Origin: Enterobacter phage ST22
Sequence record: OQ957557.1
Length of the DNA: 45,779 nucleotides
Reading direction: 5' to 3' (one strand)
A program made the translations under genes and the position numbers. Shown here in pieces: positions 1,830-45,779 of the stretch; positions within the stretch are counted from its first letter, which is position 1; every line of letters starts with the position of its first letter. A model generated the notes under the pieces. The model ran no database searches. It saw only the letters and a program-made list of their open reading frames with translations, and was not told the origin of the DNA.

Positions 1830-2795
1830 TTAGAAAGCAACGTGGGCACCAACCGCACCGCCAACCGTGTGCCCGTCAGTGGTCAGATCCAGAGTTACCG
1901 CAGTGCTTTCCGTCGCCTGGTACTGAGCACCAACCGCCAGAGCCGCAGAGTTATCCCATGAGCCAATCGCTACAGCTGCGCCGTTGCCGTGGTCATAGTG
2001 CAGACCTGCCGCAGCTATGGCTGCGCTGGTGGCGCGGGCCAGCTCTTTGTGCGTCACGGTGTCGCGTGGGGTGAAGTCACGCCCAGCCGCGCCAGTGTCG
2101 CCCTTGTCGCCTTTCTCGCCTTTCTCGCCTTTGGCACCGGCCTGGCCATCCTTGCCATCCTTGCCAGCTGCGCCAGCTTTGCCATCGCGGCCCGCCTTGC
2201 CATCCTTGCCGTTAACGCCGTCACGGCCTGCCTTGCCAGCTGCGCCATCCTTCCCATTCAGTCCGTTATGCCCATCAACGCCATTAACGCCATCACGGCC
2301 CGCTGCACCGTCATGCCCGTTAGCGCCAGCAGTGCCGTTTTTGCCATCCACACCATCATGCCCGTTAACGCCATCTTTCCCATCCTTCCCGTTTAAACCA
2401 TCTTTGCCATCATGCACCTGGATGGCGTGCTGGATAGCTGCATCCAGTTTGGCCTGCTGGCGCTGAGCGTCTGTAACGTTGCTATCCAGATGGCTGCTGC
2501 GGTCAATCCCAGCAGGGGCATCTGCGTGCGGTGTAACCGGCTGCTGGTGGTTGCCATCCAGGTGCGGGGTGGTCACGCCGCCAGCGTGCAGATCCTGCCG
2601 CCAGTTAGTGCCTGCCGCCTTGTCAGCGCTGTCAAACTCAGCCTGCTGCTGAGCATCAAAGCCTGAGTAAGTGCGCGCAGCGTCCTGATAGCTCATGTTT
2701 TGGATAGTGTTATACAGGTCAACGCCTGCGCCAGCATGAGCCACGCCAGTGATGGACGCCAGAGCAATGGTTACAGCAACGATAGTTTTACGCAT
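1830..2795 (-). CDS. Secreted collagen-like trimeric-autotransporter (YadA-type) adhesin-like protein. It has a Sec signal peptide, a long G-X-Y collagen repeat tract and a C-terminal 4-strand beta-barrel anchor ending in F.
   Basis: N-terminus MRKTIVAVTIALASITGVAHA. About 35 GXY triplets (GKDGKDGVNGHDG...). C-terminus ...AVAIGSWDNSAALAVGAQYQATESTAVTLDLTTDGHTVGGAVGAHVAF, with alternating hydrophobics and a terminal aromatic residue. Confidence 0.6.
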   Translation of the reverse strand: MRKTIVAVTIALASITGVAHAGAGVDLYNTIQNMSYQDAARTYSGFDAQQQAEFDSADKAAGTNWRQDLHAGGVTTPHLDGNHQQPVTPHADAPAGIDRSSHLDSNVTDAQRQQAKLDAAIQHAIQVHDGKDGLNGKDGKDGVNGHDGVDGKNGTAGANGHDGAAGRDGVNGVDGHNGLNGKDGAAGKAGRDGVNGKDGKAGRDGKAGAAGKDGKDGQAGAKGEKGEKGDKGDTGAAGRDFTPRDTVTHKELARATSAAIAAAGLHYDHGNGAAVAIGSWDNSAALAVGAQYQATESTAVTLDLTTDGHTVGGAVGAHVAF

Positions 2796-3778: not shown

Positions 3779-4085
3779 TTTGTCTCTCCTCTCTGGGATT
3801 TAAAACCGTAAATCAACATGGTGCCCATCAGCTTGACCGCTGGGGATGGCGTGCCGGTCTGCTGGTATGTATCATCACCAGCCACCAATCCCTGCACCGT
3901 AAACTGCACATCTCGCAGCGTGCGCCCTTCCAGTGCCATCTCCCGCCCAGCTCTGCACATCGCCTCTGCGCCTGAGCGAGTGGATTGATTCATGATACTG
4001 CGCACCACCACGCTGCACGGGTTGGCCTGAGCCATCGCCGCAGCTGGCAGCATCAGGGCCACCAGCAACAAAATGCGTTTATTCA
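3775..4085 (-). CDS. Small secreted/periplasmic protein (~103 aa) with a Sec signal peptide (GTG start, VNKRILLLVALMLPAAAMA-QA).
   Basis: Hydrophobic N-terminus with an AMA-Q cleavage-like site and two Cys. The start is inferred from the GTG preceding the signal peptide. Confidence 0.45.
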
Positions 4086-4318
4086 CCGGCAGGCTCCTCT
4101 GGCTGCTCATCAGCCTCCTCACGGATGTTTTCTGCGATGGTCACAGTGCCTACTGCATCGTAAAAAGCCCATTGGCCCTTTAGCTTGATATCCACCAGCC
4201 CCTGCGATGGCGTAGGGTGTACATCCTCCACCAGGACAAGCTCACCATCAATCAGCATGGTCATGCCGTCCTCAACGAAAGCCACCTTAATCAGGCGCTC
4301 ATCATATTTGATAGCCAT
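4079..4318 (-). CDS. Hypothetical small acidic protein (~79 aa).
   Basis: ORF with GGAG 6 nt upstream of the ATG at 4316-4318. The acidic C-terminus is EEADEQPEEPAGE. Confidence 0.4.
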   Translation of the reverse strand: MAIKYDERLIKVAFVEDGMTMLIDGELVLVEDVHPTPSQGLVDIKLKGQWAFYDAVGTVTIAENIREEADEQPEEPAGE

Positions 4319-4366
4319 TCTCATCTCCAAAAAAAGTTAGCCCCACCAGCTGGCAGGGCATTGGGT

Positions 4367-4582
4367 TTATGCGTAACGGTTTACGCGTACAACATACTCC
4401 ACGCCAGTGTAACCGAAAGCGTGATCCAGCGAATCGGCCAGGTTATAGGCTGATGCCTCAGCATCAACTGGAAACTCGCCTTTTTTGACTTCATGCCCGT
4501 TGGTTTGGATTTCAACCACGGTGAATGAGCGGATTGCTTTTCCGTTGTGGTCATACTTCGGATGGCGGCTAGTGGTTGTCAT
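4367..4582 (-). CDS. Hypothetical protein (71 aa). It is the first gene of the leftward cluster.
   Basis: It is preceded by the leader ...GAAACGACAACCACTCAAGAGGATTCATAAATG and a consensus-like promoter. Confidence 0.5.
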   Translation of the reverse strand: MTTTSRHPKYDHNGKAIRSFTVVEIQTNGHEVKKGEFPVDAEASAYNLADSLDHAFGYTGVEYVVRVNRYA

Positions 4583-4621
4583 TTATGAATCCTCTTGAGT
4601 GGTTGTCGTTTCAATGAGGTC

Positions 4622-4654
4622 ATTATGGGGCCACCAGCCCAGAGCGTCAACCAT
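4622..4654 (-). promoter_or_regulatory. Sigma70-like promoter, GGTTGACG family: -35 TTGACG (RC of 4645-4650), 17-nt spacer, -10 CATAAT (RC of 4622-4627). It drives the leftward cluster.
   Basis: TAATAAATGGTTGACGC-N17-CATAAT with an AT-rich UP-like region. The AACGACAACC leader motif lies about 12 nt downstream of the -10. Confidence 0.55.
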
Positions 4655-4746
4655 TTATTAGTTTTTATGTACAAATATTGACCATTATTAGCGTAAGTCC
4701 ATGACGCATAACGATTTATTGAATTATTAGATTTCAGAAGTATAAA

Positions 4747-4773
4747 GGGGGTATGGGGGGAGGGGGAGAGGGG
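4747..4773 (+). repeat. Canonical G-quadruplex-forming motif GGGGGTATGGGGGGAGGGGGAGAGGG, with an extra GGGG at 4783-4786.
   Basis: Four G-tracts of >=3 with loops of 1-4 nt, read directly on the plus strand. Confidence 0.5.
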
Positions 4774-4785
4774 TGCCCCTAAGGG

Positions 4786-4860
4786 GTAGTAGTAGTAAGT
4801 AAGTAAGTAAGTATATATATATATAATAAATAAATAATATATATAATTACTATATAGAAT
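4786..4860. repeat. Composite microsatellite tract: (GTA)3-4, (GTAA)4, (TA)7, (AATA)3, (TA)4-5.
   Basis: tagtagtagtaagtaagtaagtaagtatatatatatataataaataaataatatatataattactatatag. Confidence 0.65.
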
Positions 4861-4869
4861 AGACACTTA

Positions 4870-4970
4870 GGGCAACCGTCAACCGTTTCCAAACCTAATA
4901 ATCTAATAACAGTTTGACACTATCCACCAGCTCAGCGCAAAATGGCAACCTGTTTTGACAACCAACCGGT
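4870..4970. promoter_or_regulatory. Iteron-like CAACC repeats (GCAACC GTCAACC .. CCAAACC .. GGCAACC .. GACAACCAACC) with TTGACA -35-like elements. Candidate origin of replication and early rightward promoter region, immediately upstream of the primase.
   Basis: Five to six CAACC copies within ~100 bp, next to an AT-rich low-complexity tract and the prim-pol gene. Confidence 0.35.
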
Positions 4971-4979
4971 AACGCACCG

Positions 4980-7673
4980 ATGAAAGAGAATCGTTTAACG
5001 CCTCACTGGAGGCTTTACAAGGATGCAGGCTTTTCCATCATCCCAATCATCCCCATGGAGCAAAACGGGAGGGGGGATTGGGTTTGTACGTGTAACAGCG
5101 CCCATTGTCAGGCGGCTGGTAAGCACCCAACGATCAGACGTTGGGAAAACGTTGTGCATACGCATAGCGATGCGGCAACGCACCGCCTGATTAATTCCAA
5201 ATGCCAGAGCTTTGGGGTTTCCGCTGATGGGTGGCTGATTGTGGACGTGGACCCGCGCAATGGTGGCGGGGTAGGTCTGGAAAAGCTGGAGGAGGCACTG
5301 GATTGCTATCTTGAGGATATCGCCGGATTGACCGTTGAAACGGGAGGCGGTGGCCTGCATTACTATTTCAAAGCCCCTGAGGGCGTGAAGATGGTGACGG
5401 GCAAAAAGGAGTTTCCTGGGGTGGACTTTGTGCATGGCCTGCATTACGTGGTTGGGGCCGGTAGCGCGCATAAATCAGGTGGCACTTACACCATCAAAAA
5501 GGGTAGCCCGGACAAGATTGATTATCCCCCTAAAGAGCTGGTGGACCTGATTGAGAGGCAGCCCTGGGTGGCTGGCACTGGTGGGGATGGTGAAGCTGAG
5601 CCGGAGCTGGTGGAGATGGCCCTTGATGCTATTCCAAATGATGATGTGGACTATGATGAATGGCTGCGCATTGGGATGGCTCTGCGTCACTGGGATGATG
5701 ATGCCGGTTATGCCCTGTTTGTTAAGTGGTCGGAGCAGTCCAGCAAGTTTGATCCGGCTGACCTTGATCGCCGCTGGGCATCATTTGGGGATGTGGGCGC
5801 GGTTAACGTGGGCACCATCTTTCAGCGGGCCATGCTGAATGGCTGGGAGCGTCCACGCGATGCAGTTTGTGGTGAGATTGATGAGCAGGGCAAGATCATC
5901 CCGTTCCGCGCTACTGAGGCCCAACTGGATGCCATGCGTAAGATGCTGAGCACTCCACGGGGTAGCAAGGTAATCGTGGTGCATGAGGATGAGGTGATTG
6001 AGTCAGACGCCGCACCCCAGCGCCAGGCTGCGCCTGCCGCCGAAAACCCACAACCCCAAAACCAAAAACCCATGGGCACCGCAGCAAGCTGCCGCACCGG
6101 TGGCAAACCCTTCTGGCAGAAAAGCGATGGCACCACCCCAACCGGCGAGATGCGCCACGCGGGTGTGCTGCCGGTGGCCCCTCCTGCCCCTACCATCAAG
6201 GCCGCGCCGAAAGCCTCAGCTGCGGCTATGCAGTACAAGATCAAGCTCCCTGGCTGGATTGGAACAATTTACGATCACATGGCCCGCACCGCGTGGAGCG
6301 TGCAGCCTGGTGCCATCGCCGCCGCAGCCATTCAGGCCGTTGCCGTCGCTGGGCGCGGGGTGAAGGGCTACAACCGCGCTAACACGAGCCTCATCACGAT
6401 GGTGATCGCCGCGTCAGCGTCCGGCAAAGAGCACCCTCAGCGCGTTTTCCACACCCTGATGCAGAGCGTTGGAATTGACGTTCACGCGGAGATGCGCAGT
6501 GACAAGGATTTAGTTTACGGGCTGGTGGATGGCGACGGTGCAGCGTGCTACCTGGTGGATGAGGCCCATACGCTCTTTGGGGCTGCCGGTGCCGGTGATG
6601 CCGTCAAGCGCGTGGACAAGTCCAGCCTCCAGCTGGGCGGGATGCTGCTGAAAGTGGGCACCGCCACCAAATTGCCACTGCCGCGTAACTGGATGGCTGA
6701 CATTGAGGCGCGTGAGGGCGCTGAGATTGAGAAGCTGCGCAAAAAACAGGCCCAGATTGAGGAGGGCAAAGGCGTATGGAAGCAGCGCCCCACTGAGCAG
6801 GCTAACCTGGAATATGCGCGCCTTGAGGCTCTGATCGGTTTCCGTGAGAAGCGCCTCAAAAACCTCAAAGCCAACGGGCTGGATAACGTCAAATTCAACA
6901 TGCTGTGTAGCTCCACACCTGCCATGTTCTCTGAATACATTGACGAAACGGCGATTAATAACGGGCTGGCGGGCCGTGCGCTGATCTTTGACTGCGGGCA
7001 CAAGGCAGATTATCCATGCTTTGAAGCGCCGCCACTGGATAGCCAGCGCCGCGCTGAGATTGATGATTATATTGCGCGCCTGCGGGAAGCCGGTGAGCTG
7101 GGGCTGGAGGTTGAGGCCAGCAGCGGGGCGGTGGCGTTATTCCGTCAGTTCCATGACAAGATGAGTCAGCCAGCTTATGCAGAAGATCCGCAAACGGGGC
7201 CGGTAAACCGCCGCAGCTCTGAGCGCGTTTCAAGCCTTGCCAGCATCCTGGCGATGGGAAACCAGACACATGAGGGCGTTTTCCTGATCACTGAGGAGAT
7301 CGCGCAAACCGCCATTGATCTGGTGGAGATGCACCTGGCAACGTGCCGCTTTATGCTTAGTCAGACCATGGCAGAGGATAGCCAGATTGACAGCAAGGCC
7401 GCCATCCAGCAGCGGGTGCTGCATATCATGCAGAAAACCACCAGCGATGAGCCTATGGCTTACAGCGTGCTGCGTCAGCGTTTCCTGGCTGCCAAAAAGT
7501 GGAAAACACTTATCAAACGGTTGACGGATGAGGGGCCAAAGTCCGATAATGACCGTCTGGGCCAGGAGATCATTGCCATGCTGCGGCTGGGCTTGATTGA
7601 TGGCGCGGTGAATAAAGCGTGCTGGATCACGCCGAAAGGCAGAGAGAGCGGCGGCTATGGTAAATCTTTATAA
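4980..7673 (+). CDS. DNA primase (bifunctional primase-polymerase N-terminus + PriCT-like region + Pro/Ala-rich linker + large C-terminal DUF3987-like domain).
   Basis: N-terminus ...LIVDVDPRNGGG...GGGGLHYYFK..VDFVHG (prim-pol). 897 aa, with a low-complexity linker at about aa 330-400. Confidence 0.75.
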   Translation: MKENRLTPHWRLYKDAGFSIIPIIPMEQNGRGDWVCTCNSAHCQAAGKHPTIRRWENVVHTHSDAATHRLINSKCQSFGVSADGWLIVDVDPRNGGGVGLEKLEEALDCYLEDIAGLTVETGGGGLHYYFKAPEGVKMVTGKKEFPGVDFVHGLHYVVGAGSAHKSGGTYTIKKGSPDKIDYPPKELVDLIERQPWVAGTGGDGEAEPELVEMALDAIPNDDVDYDEWLRIGMALRHWDDDAGYALFVKWSEQSSKFDPADLDRRWASFGDVGAVNVGTIFQRAMLNGWERPRDAVCGEIDEQGKIIPFRATEAQLDAMRKMLSTPRGSKVIVVHEDEVIESDAAPQRQAAPAAENPQPQNQKPMGTAASCRTGGKPFWQKSDGTTPTGEMRHAGVLPVAPPAPTIKAAPKASAAAMQYKIKLPGWIGTIYDHMARTAWSVQPGAIAAAAIQAVAVAGRGVKGYNRANTSLITMVIAASASGKEHPQRVFHTLMQSVGIDVHAEMRSDKDLVYGLVDGDGAACYLVDEAHTLFGAAGAGDAVKRVDKSSLQLGGMLLKVGTATKLPLPRNWMADIEAREGAEIEKLRKKQAQIEEGKGVWKQRPTEQANLEYARLEALIGFREKRLKNLKANGLDNVKFNMLCSSTPAMFSEYIDETAINNGLAGRALIFDCGHKADYPCFEAPPLDSQRRAEIDDYIARLREAGELGLEVEASSGAVALFRQFHDKMSQPAYAEDPQTGPVNRRSSERVSSLASILAMGNQTHEGVFLITEEIAQTAIDLVEMHLATCRFMLSQTMAEDSQIDSKAAIQQRVLHIMQKTTSDEPMAYSVLRQRFLAAKKWKTLIKRLTDEGPKSDNDRLGQEIIAMLRLGLIDGAVNKACWITPKGRESGGYGKSL

Positions 7674-8912: not shown

Positions 8913-8931
8913 AAATAATTTAAAATAATGG

Positions 8932-8968
8932 TTGACGGTTGAGGTGATTGGGGTAATAATCACCTCAA
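8932..8968 (+). promoter_or_regulatory. Sigma70-like promoter, GGTTGACG family: -35 TTGACG (8932-8937), 17-nt spacer, -10 AATAAT (8955-8960). It is overlapped by the 11-bp inverted repeat TTGAGGTGATT-N8-AATCACCTCAA (8939-8949/8958-8968).
   Basis: ATAATGGTTGACGG with an AT-rich upstream tract. The perfect inverted repeat covers the spacer/-10/TSS, which is an operator-like position. Confidence 0.55.
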
Positions 8969-9007
8969 CAAAACGACAACCGTTTAAACCAAAGAGGACT
9001 TATCAAG

Positions 9008-9976
9008 ATGGCAAACTCAAACGCAATCCGCACCGCTCTGAAAATCGTTTCCCGCATGATTGAACTGCGCAGCTCTGGCATCAAGCTGAAAGTTTATAAG
9101 GCTGAACTGCTCACCATGATGTGCGATCTGCAAAAGGATTTACCGGCAGAGGTTAATTGGTATCTCACCCAGGCTCACCGCTCACGCTCTGGGGAGACTT
9201 TTTTCCGTCGCCTGCGTGATGCAGAGGCGATCATTGTTTCCGCTCTGCGCCTCGCTGAGCAGATGGACGGCTACCACGCTGAGGCGCTGGAAATGGATGA
9301 AGATTTTGAATGCCGCGCCTACACCGTTGAGCACGCTCAGGAGCAGTTTAAAGAGCTTGATCCTGAGGTACGCGGCGAGGTTATCGCAGAGAAACATACT
9401 GAGGCGCTGGCTATTAACGCCGCTTTCGATAGCTCATTCCACCGCCGCGCTGCCAACTGGGGCGCGATGGATATGCTGAGCCGTGAGGTGGCGCTGGATA
9501 AAGCCCACCAGGAAGCGATGGAAATCAATAAGCGCTACCCGCTGAGCCAAAAGCAGAAAGATGCGATCCGCCAGGGTGGCATTGAAATTATGCACCGCGC
9601 CCACCCATTCCTGCTGGAGGAGGATCACGCCAAAGCGCTGCGCATGAATGCGGGTATTGATCGCGCCGTGGAGATCATCAAGCTGATGGCGCTGATGCCT
9701 GGGGCCGGTGATGCAGCAGGTGGCTGCCTTTACCGTGACGGCTTTGACGATATCAATGATCTCGTGGAGGTGGCGCTGCGCATCGTTGGGCCTTACGTCT
9801 ACATGAAGCCAGCAGGATGCGCGGCAGCTATGCGGTGTGATGGGGATCGCGTCTGGTGGTGGTCTGAACGCCGCAAAGTCTGGATTAAAGAGACTGATTG
9901 CACGCCGGAGACTTTCGCCAGCTTTCTGACCACCGGAAACGGATTTTATTGCAGCAACCCAGAAGTAAATCAGTAA
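9008..9976 (+). CDS. Hypothetical protein (322 aa).
   Basis: It is preceded by the leader AAAACGACAACCGTTTAAACCAAAGAGG. I recognise no domain. Confidence 0.6.
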   Translation: MANSNAIRTALKIVSRMIELRSSGIKLKVYKAELLTMMCDLQKDLPAEVNWYLTQAHRSRSGETFFRRLRDAEAIIVSALRLAEQMDGYHAEALEMDEDFECRAYTVEHAQEQFKELDPEVRGEVIAEKHTEALAINAAFDSSFHRRAANWGAMDMLSREVALDKAHQEAMEINKRYPLSQKQKDAIRQGGIEIMHRAHPFLLEEDHAKALRMNAGIDRAVEIIKLMALMPGAGDAAGGCLYRDGFDDINDLVEVALRIVGPYVYMKPAGCAAAMRCDGDRVWWWSERRKVWIKETDCTPETFASFLTTGNGFYCSNPEVNQ

Positions 9977-11746: not shown

Positions 11747-13637
11747 ACTGAGGGGCTACCAGCAGGATGCAGTTGACGCTGTTATCGCCCAGATCCGGCG
11801 CTCAGTCGCTTCCGCCGTCATTGTCCTGCCTACTGGGGCGGGCAAGTCTCTGGTGGTGGCTGAGCTAGCTAAACGCATTCACCATGACAGCAAGGGCAAG
11901 CGCGTGCTCTGCCTTGCTCCAACCGCTGAGCTGGTGACGCAGAACCGCAAAAAATTCCTGGCTTTTGGCTATGATGCCAGCCTGTTTTCAGCATCAGCCG
12001 GTGGCAAGTCAACCCGCCATCCGGTGATTTTCGGCAGCCCAATGACCGTGGCTAACAGCGTTGAGCGTTTTTATGATGATGTGGCTGCCATCATCGTTGA
12101 TGAATGCCAGGGCATCACCAGCACCCTGCTGAAAATCATTGATTCCATCCGTGAACATAATCCACGCGTGCGCCTGATTGGCATGACTGCCACGCCATAC
12201 CGCACCGGCACCGGCTACATCTACAAAGATCATTACATCAACGGGCCAACGGATGAAACCAACGCCCGTGATCCATATTTTGACCGCGTGGTGTATGAGC
12301 TGCCTGCGCAGTATCTGATTGACAACAGTTTCCTTAACCCGCCTCTGGTAGGCGAGCGGATCACGCTGGGTTACTCCACCAGCGGGCTGGAAATGCGCGG
12401 TGATAAATTCACCAATGACAGCGTGAAAGAGGCGTTTGAGGGTGAGGCTCGCCTGACCTATCAGATTGTCCAGGATATCGTTGAGCGGGTGGAAACTGGC
12501 GGTTATCGCAGCGTGATGATTTTTGCCGCCACCCGTGACCATGCAGAGGAAGTGTGCAGCTATTTGCCAGCCGGTGAGTGGGTTGCGGTGTACGGTGACA
12601 CGCCGAAAGCGCAGCGTGATATTAACCTGAATGCTTTCATTGCCAACAAATATAAATACATCGTCAACCAAAACATATTGACAACCGGTTTCGATGCGCC
12701 TATGGTTGACGTTATCGGAGTGATGCGCGCCACTGAGTCACCTGGCCTTTACCAGCAAATCATTGGACGCGGCACCCGCCTCTGCGATGTTCCATACCCA
12801 GACGGCAGGATGAAAGATCACTTTCTGGTGCTGGAATATGCTGAGAATATCAGCCGCCACTTTAAGGAAACCGGCGATCTATTTGTGCCGGAGATTAAAG
12901 CCCGTAAGCCGCCAACCGGCACGCCCATGGAGGTGCCTTGCCCAGATTGTGGGTTTGTGAATACGTTCACGGCGCGGCCTAACGAGGAGAATCTCAAGAT
13001 TGATGAGCATGGCTATTTCCTGGACTTGTCCGGCAGTCAGCTGATGATTGAGATCAAGGAGGGGCGCAAGGGTGAGGAGATTTACAAAGAGGTGCCAATG
13101 CCTGCCCACTTCGGCAGACGCTGCACCAACATGCTGGAGCAGGGGCCACTGCGTGAGATTAAGCGCTGCGGCTATATGTGGAGCTTTAAGAGCTGCCCTG
13201 AGTGTGGCACTCAAAACGATATAGCCGCACGCAAATGCACGGCCTGCAAATGCGAGATTGTCAACCCTAATGACAAACTCAAAGAGGAGGCCGAAATGCT
13301 GGAGAAAGATCCGCACGCGGTTAAAACGGCAAACGTCACTGGGATGCTGTGGCAACGGTCATGGTCACGCAAAGGCGATCAGATGCTCATCCTGACCTGG
13401 CTGACTGATCACAAGCTCAAGATGTTCCGCAAGATTGAGCAGCCATTTATCCCAGACCACGAAAAGGCGTTTCCGCGCCAGAAGTGGGAGCGCATGAGTA
13501 AAGATCTGTTTGGGCACGTCAAGGATATTGAGGACGCGCTCAGTTTGCAGAAAGCGGCCCGCCTACCGGCGCGCATTGTTTTCCAGCGGCCTAAGGGCCA
13601 GAAGTACCCAATCATTAAACGTCTGGAGTTTGAATAA
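11737..13637 (+). CDS. SF2 (DEAD/DEAH-like) helicase with C-terminal zinc ribbons. Start inferred at the GTG after an AAAGGGG RBS.
   Basis: RGYQQDAV...LPTGAGKS (motif I), DECQ (motif II), and C-terminal CPDCG...CPECG...CTACKC. Confidence 0.8.
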
Positions 13638-19357: not shown

Positions 19358-19818
19358 GAAAATCAGCAAAAAGTAACGCCCCGCGAGATTGGTCGCCGGT
19401 TGAGAAAGATAACGGCGTTTACTGCGCACCGGCGTGCGGCTGCGGCTGCCTGAAAGTGGACTATGAGCGATGCCACCAGCAGGCTGCGGTGGTCCAGGCT
19501 GAGCTTAAAGAGCTGGGGCTGGGTGATTGGCAGATCCGTGTCTGGGAAAATGGTGATTGGCACTGGGAGCTGTACGCAGAATACTGGCACCTGTCTCCAA
19601 CGGAGCGAGTTAACAGCGAGCTGCCGAAAGGCCACCCAGAACGCAAAACCATTGTGAGCTGGAGCTGCTACACCCTCCAGGGGCCGCAGGGGTTGAGCCA
19701 AATCTGGGAGCGTGGGCCAAATTATATTGAGGCGCTGCACCGCGCCACCGTGCGGCTCACTGAGCTTGCTGAGGCAGTAAAAGCCACCGGCAACGCTTTC
19801 CCACCAGCCAAAAAATAA
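19354..19818 (+). CDS. Hypothetical Cys-rich protein (154 aa).
   Basis: CAPACGCGC motif near the N-terminus. Confidence 0.5.
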   Translation: MRKSAKSNAPRDWSPVEKDNGVYCAPACGCGCLKVDYERCHQQAAVVQAELKELGLGDWQIRVWENGDWHWELYAEYWHLSPTERVNSELPKGHPERKTIVSWSCYTLQGPQGLSQIWERGPNYIEALHRATVRLTELAEAVKATGNAFPPAKK

Positions 19819-19826
19819 TTTCACTA

Positions 19827-19856
19827 AAGCGGTTGACAATCTCAGCCGCTTTTTTG
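19827..19856 (+). terminator. AGCGG-N13-CCGCT hairpin followed by TTTTTT.
   Basis: It overlaps the promoter of the next operon. Confidence 0.5.
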
Positions 19857-19862
19857 TATGCT
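19833..19862 (+). promoter_or_regulatory. Sigma70-like promoter: -35 TTGACA (19833-19838), 18-nt spacer, -10 TATGCT. It is followed by the conserved leader CGAAACGACAACCGATTTAAAGAGG.
   Basis: Read directly. Confidence 0.45.
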
Positions 19863-19901
19863 TACCACATCGAAACGACAACCGATTTAAAGAGGCTCCA
19901 A

Positions 19902-38683: not shown

Positions 38684-38712
38684 TTGACACGTCAACCGGT
38701 TGCCGGTAGATT
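38684..38712 (+). promoter_or_regulatory. Sigma70-like promoter of the plus-strand island: -35 TTGACA (38684-38689), 17-nt spacer, -10 TAGATT. The inverted repeat GTTGAC-AC-GTCAAC overlaps the -35. It is followed by the leader GTAACGACAACCATTTGAGAGG.
   Basis: Read directly. Confidence 0.5.
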
Positions 38713-38750
38713 TAGCGATGTAACGACAACCATTTGAGAGGTTTATTAAG

Positions 38751-40863: not shown

Positions 40864-41139
40864 TTATGCGTCTGGGTAGACGGTGAAGATAAACGAGCCA
40901 CCACTCACGCCGCCGCTCACAAACGGAGAAATGCCTTTCGGCAGCAGGATGGCATCACCCGCCAGCAGGATGGCATCACCCGCCAGCAGGGTGTGCGCTG
41001 GCACCGGCTGCCCCGCCTGCGGAGCGCTGGCGCTATCACACCAGTAGACCGTTGTAACCGCCTCAATCAGCACCTGAGAAGCGCCACCACCGGCTGCCTC
41101 CCACTCACCTGGCGCAACCTCTTTTAATTCTGTAGCCAT
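40864..41139 (-). CDS. Hypothetical head-module protein (91 aa) containing an in-frame tandem 21-bp duplication (LLAGDAI x2).
   Basis: ORF 13 nt downstream of the Ig-domain gene. Confidence 0.45.
   Translation of the reverse strand: MATELKEVAPGEWEAAGGGASQVLIEAVTTVYWCDSASAPQAGQPVPAHTLLAGDAILLAGDAILLPKGISPFVSGGVSGGSFIFTVYPDA
40942..40990. repeat. Tandem direct repeat: 2.3 copies of the 21-bp unit CAGCAGGATGGCATCACCCGC.
   Basis: Read directly. Confidence 0.7.
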
Positions 41140-45025: not shown

Positions 45026-45779
45026 TTAGTACATGAAGCCGATATCAGGCAGAGCCTCAGGCAGAATGTCACGGATGATCGGGAACGTGTAGGCGATGTA
45101 ATAGCCGCCTGCATCGTTGGCATGGTCAAAGCCGCTTTTCTTGTCCGGCTCGCCAGTTTTCTCATCATAGATCTGATTCTGGAGACACTTAGAATACCAC
45201 GGGCAGAGTAAATCATTCACAAAATAACGGCGTTCACCTGCCGCATTGAGGAACATCGCGTTTACTGCGTTGATGCGGCTCTTGACGGCTGGGTTAGTCT
45301 GCTCATAGTGGACCATGAAGCCCGCACCCTCCAGCAGGGCAATATCAGAGGTGGATGCGCCGCTGGTCTTGCGGTTTTTGCCTGAGCTGTCAGGGTAAAC
45401 GTTGATTTGGTGGTGCCCGTTGCCGTAGCGCTCAATGATGGCCTCAATCATATCCGGCGTATCATAGCGATCCACAAACTCAGCCACTGCATGTGGCTTT
45501 CCGTCACGGATAACGTGAACGATGGCGCTCATGTGCTGGACGTTAAAGTCCATCCCGATAAACAGCGGCTCACCTGGCTGCACCTCCTCACGGGAGCGGT
45601 TGCCCGCCACATCATAGGTGTAATAGATCGTGCCTGATGCAAGGTTAGTGAACTGGCCCAGGATGTAAGCCTTGACCAGCTCAGGCGGGTAGGAAACCAG
45701 CAGGCCAGGCACGTAGTCCAGAGGCAGGTAAGGGTTGCTCAGGGTGGCAGCCTGCACCATCTTGTAACCTTTGGCCTCA
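45026..45779 (-). CDS. terL: Terminase large subunit, C-terminal nuclease part. It continues from 1..632 across the circular junction, giving a combined protein of ~462 aa.
   Basis: ...LFIGMDFNVQHMSAIVHVIRDGKPHAVAEFVD... The ORF is open to the window end and in frame with the window-start segment. Confidence 0.8.
   Translation of the reverse strand, partial: EAKGYKMVQAATLSNPYLPLDYVPGLLVSYPPELVKAYILGQFTNLASGTIYYTYDVAGNRSREEVQPGEPLFIGMDFNVQHMSAIVHVIRDGKPHAVAEFVDRYDTPDMIEAIIERYGNGHHQINVYPDSSGKNRKTSGASTSDIALLEGAGFMVHYEQTNPAVKSRINAVNAMFLNAAGERRYFVNDLLCPWYSKCLQNQIYDEKTGEPDKKSGFDHANDAGGYYIAYTFPIIRDILPEALPDIGFMY

Follow-up and report, generated by a model that had tools for sequence, protein, structure and literature searches.

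Organization of the noncoding gap upstream of the primase gene

The record of Enterobacter phage ST22 (OQ957557.1; 45,779 nt, analyzed over its full length and referred to below as the window) contains a noncoding gap at positions 4583 to 4979, bounded on one side by a leftward gene (4367-4582, minus strand) and on the other by the rightward gene for an 897-residue primase-helicase (4980-7673, plus strand; WKV24419.1). The gap divides a leftward gene block, which comprises small open reading frames (ORFs), a collagen-repeat protein, a P22 gp3-type small terminase, the large terminase, and the portal, from a rightward replication/recombination block, which begins with the 897-residue protein and continues with an AAA_24 ATPase, a single-stranded DNA-binding protein (SSB)-like protein, a nuclease, a DEAD/SNF2 helicase, a RusA-like resolvase, an HNH protein, and a methyltransferase. 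When the rightward ORFs up to position 19815 were compared with PHROGs, and a few of them with Pfam, no DNA polymerase and no second initiator-like gene were found. An earlier note on this DNA had proposed the gap as a candidate origin of replication, listing a promoter, a G-quadruplex (G4) motif, composite microsatellites, and CAACC iterons, all of which are indeed present where it had placed them.

An ORF that spans the gap (4579-4866, minus strand) has a low-complexity translation and is not conserved in the relative whose primase is 89% identical, and a protein-coding reading of the gap was therefore ruled out. A search of the gap against Rfam gave no RNA family, with one subthreshold chance match only. 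The features found in and around the gap are as follows.

4340-4359, minus strand: terminator-like hairpin with a T-run behind it, located past the first leftward gene; the stem centers on a Chi octamer (4343) and a CCAGCTGG palindrome
4601-4611, minus strand: leader motif AAACGACAACC (plus strand, GGTTGTCGTTT), between the -10 box of the leftward promoter and the ribosome-binding site of the leftward gene
4622-4650, minus strand: leftward sigma70-like promoter (PL), TTGACG, 17-nt spacer, CATAAT; 10/12 consensus matches
4631-4638, minus strand: Chi octamer GCTGGTGG in the PL spacer
4655-4661, 4685-4691, and 4724-4730, plus strand: left candidate iterons TTATTAG, left of the core
4747-4773, plus strand: G-run GGGGGTATGGGGGGAGGGGGAGAGGGG, a canonical G4 motif (four tracts of at least three G, loops of 1 to 7 nt) within a 40-nt C-free stretch (4736-4775)
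4776-4786: palindrome CCCCTAAGGGG, whose CCCTAAG half is complementary to CTTAGGG at 4866-4872
4786-4797, 4794-4813, 4812-4825, and 4825-4836: compound microsatellite (GTA)4, (AGTA)5, (TA)7, and (AATA)3, respectively
4786-4862: candidate DNA-unwinding element (the core), the compound microsatellite and then a TA-rich palindrome; it holds the genome's least stable 40-mer (4808-4847)
4866-4886, plus strand: CTTAGGG and then the tandem 7-mer doublet CAACCGT-CAACCGT (4873, 4880), the best-conserved block adjoining the core
4895-4901 and 4903-4909, minus strand: right candidate iterons TTATTAG, an 8-bp tandem inverted relative to the left set and abutting the -35 box of the rightward promoter
4914-4943, plus strand: rightward sigma70-like promoter (PR), TTGACA (4914), 18-nt spacer, CAAAAT; 10/12 consensus matches
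4924-4931, minus strand: Chi octamer in the PR spacer
4946-4979, plus strand: primase mRNA leader, with CAACC at 4946, 4959, and 4963 (GACAACC-type leader motif)
4980-7673, plus strand: candidate initiator, 897 residues, Prim-Pol with PriCT-2 (PriCT_2/DUF3987) and an MCM-like AAA+ helicase

The gap holds the most AT-rich and most easily melted DNA of the genome

The genome minimum of G+C content lies in the gap (23%, versus 55.6 ± 5.7%), as does the minimum of 4-mer complexity (35 distinct 4-mers per 100 bp, versus 75.4 ± 5.8). The least stable 40-bp duplex of the genome falls at 4808 (-31.7 kcal/mol versus -58.1 ± 3.9), and the second and third least stable 40-mers are in the same gap. Four of the five perfect microsatellites of period 2 to 4 in the 45.8-kb window are contiguous at 4786-4836; TA-rich sequence continues after the (AATA)3 array to about 4860, and an AT-rich palindrome has its arms at 4806-4820 and 4837-4851. 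Folded as a single strand, the core (4786-4862) gave a z score of -2.6. The two longest C-free runs of the genome are also found here (4780-4849 and 4736-4775). With the genome's extremes of AT content, repetitiveness, and ease of melting, and with flanking repeats that are unique to it, the gap is credible, though unproven, as an origin.

Only one other low-complexity outlier was seen in the genome, namely, the 9-, 27-, and 36-nt DNA repeats (tandem arrays at 2090-2415) of the collagen-repeat gene. This gene (1830-2795, minus strand), located between the small ORFs and the terminase genes, encodes a 321-residue protein with collagen triple-helix repeats; its match to a YadA-like anchor is weak and falls just under the Pfam cutoff. 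The top Tandem Repeats Finder score in the window belongs to a perfect 21-nt tandem repeat at 40942-40990, with 2.3 copies of CAGCAGGATGGCATCACCCGC.

The core is conserved by property rather than by sequence

Near-identical DNA was absent from the phage collection in a near-identity DNA search, IMG/VR contained zero relatives by protein or by a conserved 19-mer, and a full-text literature search by the phage name ST22 found no paper. The relatives compared here are metagenomic loci retrieved with the primase, namely, L001 (99% identity), L002 (89%), and L003/L004 (62%), together with the more distant loci L005/L006, L007, L021, L022, and L008 (35 to 42%). L020 is another member of the 90% cluster, with 92% DNA identity to ST22 across the primase gene, and L009 covers the left half of the same gap; the conserved 19-mer led to 11 loci in metagenome and genome collections, of which only L009 proved by blastn to be a relative.

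A common layout is found in all relatives whose contigs reach the junction, and seven metagenomic relatives (primase identities of 99% to 40%) retain it. It opens with a PL-like promoter whose spacer contains a Chi octamer and continues with an AT-rich stretch in which short repeats occur, a G/T-rich tract that is strand asymmetric, a short CCCCTWWAGGGG-type GC palindrome, GTA-/TA-rich simple repeats, a conserved block reading CACTTAG-N-GCAACCGTCAACCGTT or a variant of it, and finally PR. This architecture is retained upstream of the primase down to 40% protein identity, so that the absence of the region from relatives, which the earlier note had named as a ground for abandoning an origin, was not observed. 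Short blocks (CTAAGGG, CACTTAG, the CAACCGT doublet, and CCTAATAAC) are conserved amid the turnover of the remaining sequence. The least stable 40-mer of the whole locus falls in the homologous gap in 8/8 loci, and a low-stability core of 130 to 150 bp is kept in every relative despite complete sequence turnover. Across the clade, the core is conserved by property rather than by sequence.

The repeat units themselves are (GTA)4(AGTA)5(TA)7(AATA)3 in both ST22 and L001, where the tract is identical at 76/76 positions and the flanks are about 4% different. L007 has (ACC)4, (TA)5, (CT)5, (AT)5, and (ATC)4, and its first core, compared by eye, has the ST22 order in reverse complement. In L020, the units are (GA)12(TA)6(AATA)4, with (GA)12 replacing the GTA and AGTA arrays and with one TA fewer and one AATA more than in ST22, which is repeat variation of the kind that the earlier note had proposed to look for among relatives. 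Its further suggestion that the microsatellites could phase-vary early transcription appears unlikely, as neither promoter contains the repeats, which are located between them; the repeats at 4786-4860 are noncoding and more than 50 bp from the hexamers of either promoter, which is not where contingency repeats are placed, and the ST22 and L001 tracts do not differ.

The contigs of L009, L020, and L021 end (position 1) inside the G-run/AT-repeat core, L009 and L020 coming from two assemblies with adjacent ENA accession numbers. These contig ends suggest a coverage drop or repeat-length heterogeneity at this sequence. The ST22 record, a complete genome, is cut within the large terminase gene (1-632 and 45026-45779); it is therefore an arbitrary circular permutation, the physical ends of which were evidently not determined. 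A 21-nt block, ATTATTAGCGTAAGTTAATGA, is identical in L001 (1165-1185) and L004 (5688-5708), the primases of which are only about 62% identical and the gaps of which barely align, and its ST22 counterpart (4683-4703) has two differences. The block may be bound by a protein, or a recent exchange may have left it behind.

TTATTAG repeats flank the core

The 7-mer TTATTAG has five exact copies in the 45.8-kb genome, all of them in this gap. A degenerate copy, TTATTGA at 4716, forms an 8-bp tandem with the copy at 4724, and the outermost copies are separated from the PL and PR -35 boxes by 4 bp. At least five copies of any nonmicrosatellite 7-mer were obtained in 1 of 2,000 local dinucleotide shuffles of the flanks. 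A 300-bp sliding scan of the genome ranked TTATTAG as the top noncoding 7-mer cluster and detected no other noncoding iteron-like cluster; a cluster in the DEAD-helicase gene (12351-12711) was rejected as ordinary coding sequence for helicase motifs. Both these repeats and the Chi octamers in the promoter spacers had been missed in the earlier note. The TTATTAG copies are better iteron candidates than the CAACC words.

L001 has the same five copies, and L002 and L004 have exact and one-mismatch copies. Different words are found at greater distance: L005 has ATTATCA-type repeats, and L007 (40% identity) has AAATGCA, with seven copies on the plus strand, then the core, three copies on the minus strand, and three more, arranged as 8- to 9-bp tandems that abut both promoters. 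A layout with at least two copies per side, oppositely oriented around an AT-rich center, is found in ST22, L001, and L007, is found only in part in L002 (one exact TTATTAG right of the core), and is not found in L004.

The repeats persist where there is no small ORF upstream of the primase and also where the first leftward gene is unrelated, and in this comparison of loci the primase-helicase is the only neighboring gene that appears to track them. The first leftward gene differs among lineages and was ruled out as the source of a repeat-binding protein, since it is not common to ST22 and L004. The small-ORF family was likewise rejected for this role, as ST22, L001, and L004 lack the small ORF and still have the repeats. 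This family of small proteins (83 to 106 residues) is encoded between PR and the primase gene in five relatives (L002, 5719-5991; L005, 4482-4739; L007, 4738-4989; L020, 219-539; L021, 204-458), in which its ORF replaces the primase leader. No Pfam match is on record for the called genes of the family, and nothing similar was found elsewhere in the ST22 window.

The adjacent gene encodes a Prim-Pol/MCM-like helicase

A confident AlphaFold model of the 897-residue protein (mean predicted local distance difference test score [pLDDT], 80.7) comprises an N-terminal Prim-Pol domain with PriCT-2, a disordered linker (residues 329 to 418), an AAA+ domain, and a C-terminal helix-helix-helix-strand-strand unit (residues 828 to 890), which in the model appears winged-helix-like. 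All Foldseek matches with an E value of <0.001 were archaeal or eukaryotic MCM subunits, matched to the C-terminal half; a profile search of PDB sequences gave weak but consistent MCM matches, and a single-sequence search of PDB gave nothing relevant. Residues 801 to 897 are 98% identical in L002, 59% identical in L004, and 28 to 32% identical in L005, L021, and L007. In the lineages with different repeat words, this is the least conserved folded domain (28 to 32%, versus 41 to 57% for the other folded domains).

The marks of an origin inside the initiator gene were absent, as 4980-7673 contains no low-stability window and no cluster of 7- to 9-mers. The only tandem array in the gene is an AAAACCC-type 7-nt array at 6043-6072; it encodes the low-confidence linker, the part of the protein with the lowest conservation.

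CAACC words belong to a genome-wide promoter and leader family

PL and PR face outward, their hexamer spacings of 17 and 18 bp fall within the expected range of 16 to 18 bp, and by sequence match they are divergent sigma70-like promoters. The PL block is conserved in L001, L002, L004, and L009, and the Chi octamer in its spacer is conserved in these loci and in L007. PR is identical in L001; in L020, a single base immediately following the -35 box is changed. The ST22 primase leader (4946-4979) has no visible Shine-Dalgarno sequence.

The word CAACC occurs in the gap at 4873, 4880, 4946, 4959, and 4963 and genome-wide in 168 copies, versus 100.5 ± 9.7 expected. The related GGTTGWCG has 18 copies in the genome, versus 1.9 ± 1.3 expected, at least 10 of which are in the approximately 9% of the DNA that is noncoding under a crude gene model (about 91% coding); several others are promoter-like and located at gene ends. 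The sites are at 1787-1822, 2875, 4601-4652, 4877, 7519, 8930-8981, 19831-19883, 30444, 36647, and 38690-38731. Two forms were distinguished. The first, GGTTGACG, makes a -35 box, as at 8930 and in PL, where the copy at 4645-4652 (minus strand) supplies the -35 hexamer. The second, AAACGACAACC, is the inverted form; it precedes by a few bases the ribosome-binding site of four operon-leading genes, namely, the leftward gene at the gap and the genes starting at 9008, about 19902, and 38751. In L007, the leader copy has the opposite orientation, suggesting that GGTTGWCG is a DNA-binding site rather than an RNA element.

Within the gap, the CAACC at 4946 coincides with the predicted PR start, and the copies at 4959 and 4963, which belong to the primase leader, are missing from L020 and L002. 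Of the proposed iterons, only the CAACCGT doublet is kept by the clade as a whole, in one orientation or the other, with equivalents of its block in L004 (CAACCGGTTGTCG), L021 (GGTTGTCGGTTACCGTT), and L005 (GGTAACCGATTACC). The minus strand of 4866-4886 reads GGTTGACGGTTG, which is -35-like with no good -10 box. Since similar doublets occur at other ST22 regulatory sites (8930 and 38690), we read the doublet as a putative site for a promoter-associated factor of the GGTTGWCG family or as a -35-like element, rather than as an origin-specific iteron. The CAACC iterons of the earlier note are thereby reassigned to a genome-wide family that marks -35 boxes and mRNA leaders. The CAACC words are largely explained by promoters and are mostly ordinary promoter-associated motifs.

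The G-run and the GC palindrome

The canonical G4 motif at 4747-4773 is the only one in the window on either strand, and the probability of at least one such motif in shuffles of the 397-bp region was 0.0004. The motif noted earlier is thus real, but contrary to what would be expected of a functional element, it is kept in L001 only among the relatives: it is absent from L002, L004, L005, and L007, and the G-run of L020 has an 8-nt loop. Other relatives have G/T-rich tracts in its place or, inverted, C/A-rich tracts. The adjoining palindrome has counterparts in L002 (TCCCCTAAGGGA), L004 (CACCCTATAGGGG), L007 (CCCCTATAAGGGGG), and L020 (CTCTAAGGGG).

Chi octamers

The RecBCD hotspot Chi is the commonest 8-mer of the genome, with 38 copies (1 per 1.2 kb) versus 3.2 ± 1.9 expected; in the relatives, its density is 0.5 to 1.4 sites per kb. 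The orientation of the sites is blocky, with 10 strand switches on the circle (P = 0.003), and is independent of gene strand. Chi is densest at 4059-6528, where five minus-strand sites (4059-4924) and three plus-strand sites (5537-6521) converge on the region of PR and the primase 5' end, an arrangement kept in relatives. As a signal by itself, the local cluster was discarded, five sites in 900 bp not being significant (P = 0.16). Only three sites (4343, 4631, and 4924) are not covered by any candidate ORF, and three others that are noncoding in the crude gene model fall in ORFs. A conserved Chi at position +557 of the primase gene is encoded by an ELV[DE] motif. The long-range pattern could reflect a headful packaging series rather than an origin. 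The abundance of Chi and the GGTTGACG/AAACGACAACC promoter-leader signature bear on host RecBCD handling and on transcription organization, respectively.

A proposed replication origin embedded in the divergent promoter region

Taken together, the sequence features make it plausible, though unproven, that the gap at 4583-4979 is the replication origin of the phage, embedded in a divergent early-promoter region, and we put the chances of this at about even. Of the architecture on which the earlier note had based its origin, an AT-rich unwinding element flanked by short repeats beside the only initiator-like gene is supported, whereas the CAACC iterons and the G4 are not.

From this anatomy we infer the following course of binding, melting, and priming. 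The Prim-Pol/MCM-like helicase encoded directly downstream would recognize TTATTAG, which is oppositely oriented on the two sides of the core, and would load itself on both sides of the compound-microsatellite core, the easiest DNA of the genome to melt. Negative supercoiling between the outward-firing PL and PR would aid opening, and the G-run, the short GC palindrome, and the TA palindrome could form non-B structures that keep the bubble open; the Prim-Pol domain would then prime on the exposed strands. Because the outermost repeats abut both -35 boxes, binding of the initiator would also autoregulate PR and PL.

A more elaborate version can be imagined, which we consider improbable as a whole. 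In it, the origins used by MCM-like Prim-Pol helicases in this clade of enterobacterial phages would have a property-conserved melting element consisting of a cassette of non-B simple repeats (G4 or G/T-rich, (GA)n, cruciform-forming (TA)n, GC palindrome) that turns over by slippage, is invertible, and is opened by supercoiling from the flanking promoters. Repeat length would tune initiation, giving rise to heterogeneous populations and to breaks in assemblies, and the Chi octamers in the spacers, together with the converging Chi sites, would channel RecBCD/RecA recombination-dependent replication to this place.

Several observations weigh against an origin in the gap. In Pantoea phage LIET2, the closest named phage (41% identity), the gap at this junction is only 13 bp long. 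In L004, the right-hand repeat copies are oriented like the left-hand ones and are not inverted. Three of the five TTATTAG copies sit just upstream of the two -35 boxes, at UP-element/activator positions, and the inverted symmetry of the set could simply reflect two similar divergent promoters. DnaA boxes are not enriched, with 26 sites (at most one mismatch) in the window versus 27.6 expected and one in the gap. The cumulative GC skew has its minimum at about 5 kb, but its sign tracks gene strand everywhere, including a small plus-strand block at 38.7 to 40.8 kb, and the skew was therefore rejected as independent evidence for an origin. No Rep structure of staphylococcal pathogenicity islands (SaPIs) was among the sequence or Foldseek matches of the 897-residue protein. 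Finally, related primase-helicases such as N15 RepA have the origin inside their gene.

The gap could instead be a purely transcriptional control region, composed of divergent sigma70 promoters, UP-like AT-rich sequence, and operators of a phage regulator, with the core acting as a spacer or as a sink for supercoils, without a role in replication. The two promoters are of consensus grade, the GGTTGWCG family marks the gap and about ten other promoter-like sites, the outer TTATTAG copies lie at about -40 to -50 of each promoter, and Rfam recognized no RNA family. We nevertheless regard this as rather unlikely: TTATTAG is found at none of the other GGTTGACG promoter sites, two or three of its copies are 35 to 75 bp from any -35 box and beside the core, and a low-stability core of 130 to 150 bp in every relative exceeds what a promoter spacer needs in a 91%-coding genome. 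The persistence of the core also bears on the idea that it is slippage-prone filler at a mosaic junction, in which microsatellites accumulate neutrally in a nonessential spacer amid gene gain and loss. Such filler would account for the fast turnover of repeat type and number among relatives, the variable presence of the 83- to 106-residue ORF family beside the gap, the variation of the first leftward gene between lineages, and the three metagenome contigs that end in the core. It is hard to reconcile with the continued conservation of CTAAGGG, CACTTAG, the CAACCGT doublet, and CCTAATAAC, with low stability kept at 40% protein identity, and with a 76-bp tract that is identical in ST22 and L001 though the flanks differ by 4%, and we judge it doubtful.

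Two further explanations have still less in their favor. In a transcript-primed (R-loop) origin of the ColE1/T7/CSB2 type, a rightward transcript would enter the G-run, and an RNA-DNA hybrid or hybrid G4 would serve as the primer beside the AT-rich tract. The G-rich nontemplate strand lies directly upstream of that tract, 110 nt of the top strand are almost C-free, and the mitochondrial G-tract within conserved sequence block 2 (CSB2) provides a precedent (PMC5027508). However, the promoter scan found no plus-strand consensus promoter at 4655-4746, upstream of the G-run, and a TTGAAT-16-TATAAA match noticed by eye fails the -10 rule; the G4 motif is missing from four relatives, as described above, the L007 core appears inverted, and the phage has its own primase gene, so that this mechanism is very improbable. 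A packaging signal or physical genome terminus, which would explain the assembly breaks, is scarcely credible. The contig ends of L009, L020, and L021 in the core and the switch of the Chi orientation blocks near 2.5 to 7.4 kb would fit it, but the assemblies of ST22 and L002 continue through the gap, low-complexity G-rich sequence alone suffices for assembly breaks, and the small terminase, about 3.2 kb away, is of the P22 gp3 type. Terminases of this type go with headful packaging from a pac site in or near the terminase gene.

If the gap is the origin, it would be the first mapped origin for an uncharacterized group of phages of Enterobacter and related hosts, and such phages would replicate by a fused Prim-Pol/MCM-like helicase without a recognizable polymerase gene of their own.

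Comparison with known systems

The lambda ori lies inside gene O, the N15 ori lies inside repA, and P4 has ori/crr with its alpha primase-helicase, such that these origins are either inside the initiator gene or kilobases away from it; the lambda ori is activated by transcription. The ST22 candidate resembles them in that repeats, which bind the initiator in those phages and are candidates for doing so here, lie beside an AT-rich unwinding tract with the initiator encoded nearby. It differs in that the ST22 primase gene has no repeat cluster or AT-rich tract inside. In Lactococcus phage c2, the early and late promoters diverge from an AT-rich noncoding region that contains direct and inverted repeats and is the origin. 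The ST22 candidate shares this AT richness, both kinds of repeats, and the position between promoters that face apart; the hosts and replication proteins of the two phages are unrelated, and the c2 origin is not known to contain microsatellites or a G-run.

The G-tract of human mitochondrial CSB2, located by an origin, can form a hybrid G4 or persistent R-loop and shows length heterogeneity (PMC5027508). As in CSB2 and ColE1 RNA II, the ST22 G-tract adjoins a candidate origin; unlike them, the ST22 G-run has no visible upstream promoter, and its G4 is not conserved in the clade. With regard to Chi, a class of Chi-rich phages was recently described among lambdoid phages, including Escherichia coli phage LLS with 23 sites (PMC12315714). 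ST22 is like LLS in having Chi many times above chance or host density, with the sites in orientation blocks. It is unlike LLS in not being lambdoid, in having 38 sites in both orientations rather than 23, in encoding recombination proteins (AAA_24, SSB, and RusA-like), and in having Chi inside both promoter spacers of the gap.

SaPI origins consist of 6 to 12 penta- or hexanucleotide iterons with an AT-rich region near the center and at least two iterons per side, oppositely oriented; a Rep helicase that loads itself, with no need of a separate loader, binds the iterons through its C-terminal winged-helix domain; primase and Rep are fused in one SaPI, and among the Rep types one resembles MCM (PMC9371898). 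ST22 shares with them short repeats in two oppositely oriented sets around an AT-rich center, at least two per side, next to the gene of a primase/helicase initiator candidate with a C-terminal putative DNA-binding domain, and its helicase half is MCM-like, as is SaPI Rep2 (SF6). The ST22 candidate differs in lying directly upstream of the primase-helicase gene rather than immediately downstream, in having five exact 7-mers rather than 6 to 12 penta- or hexamers, in being embedded between divergent promoters, and in having a compound microsatellite with a G-run as its AT-rich center. Because no sequence or Foldseek match to a SaPI Rep was obtained, the likeness is claimed for the kind of architecture only and not for family membership. 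If the gap does prove to be the origin, the SaPI-type layout, in which two hexamers load around an AT-rich center, would be extended to a virulent-looking siphophage. About 260 bp of DNA and one protein would then make up a compact test system for melting by self-loading helicases, in which simple-repeat non-B-DNA tracts could be tested as unwinding elements.

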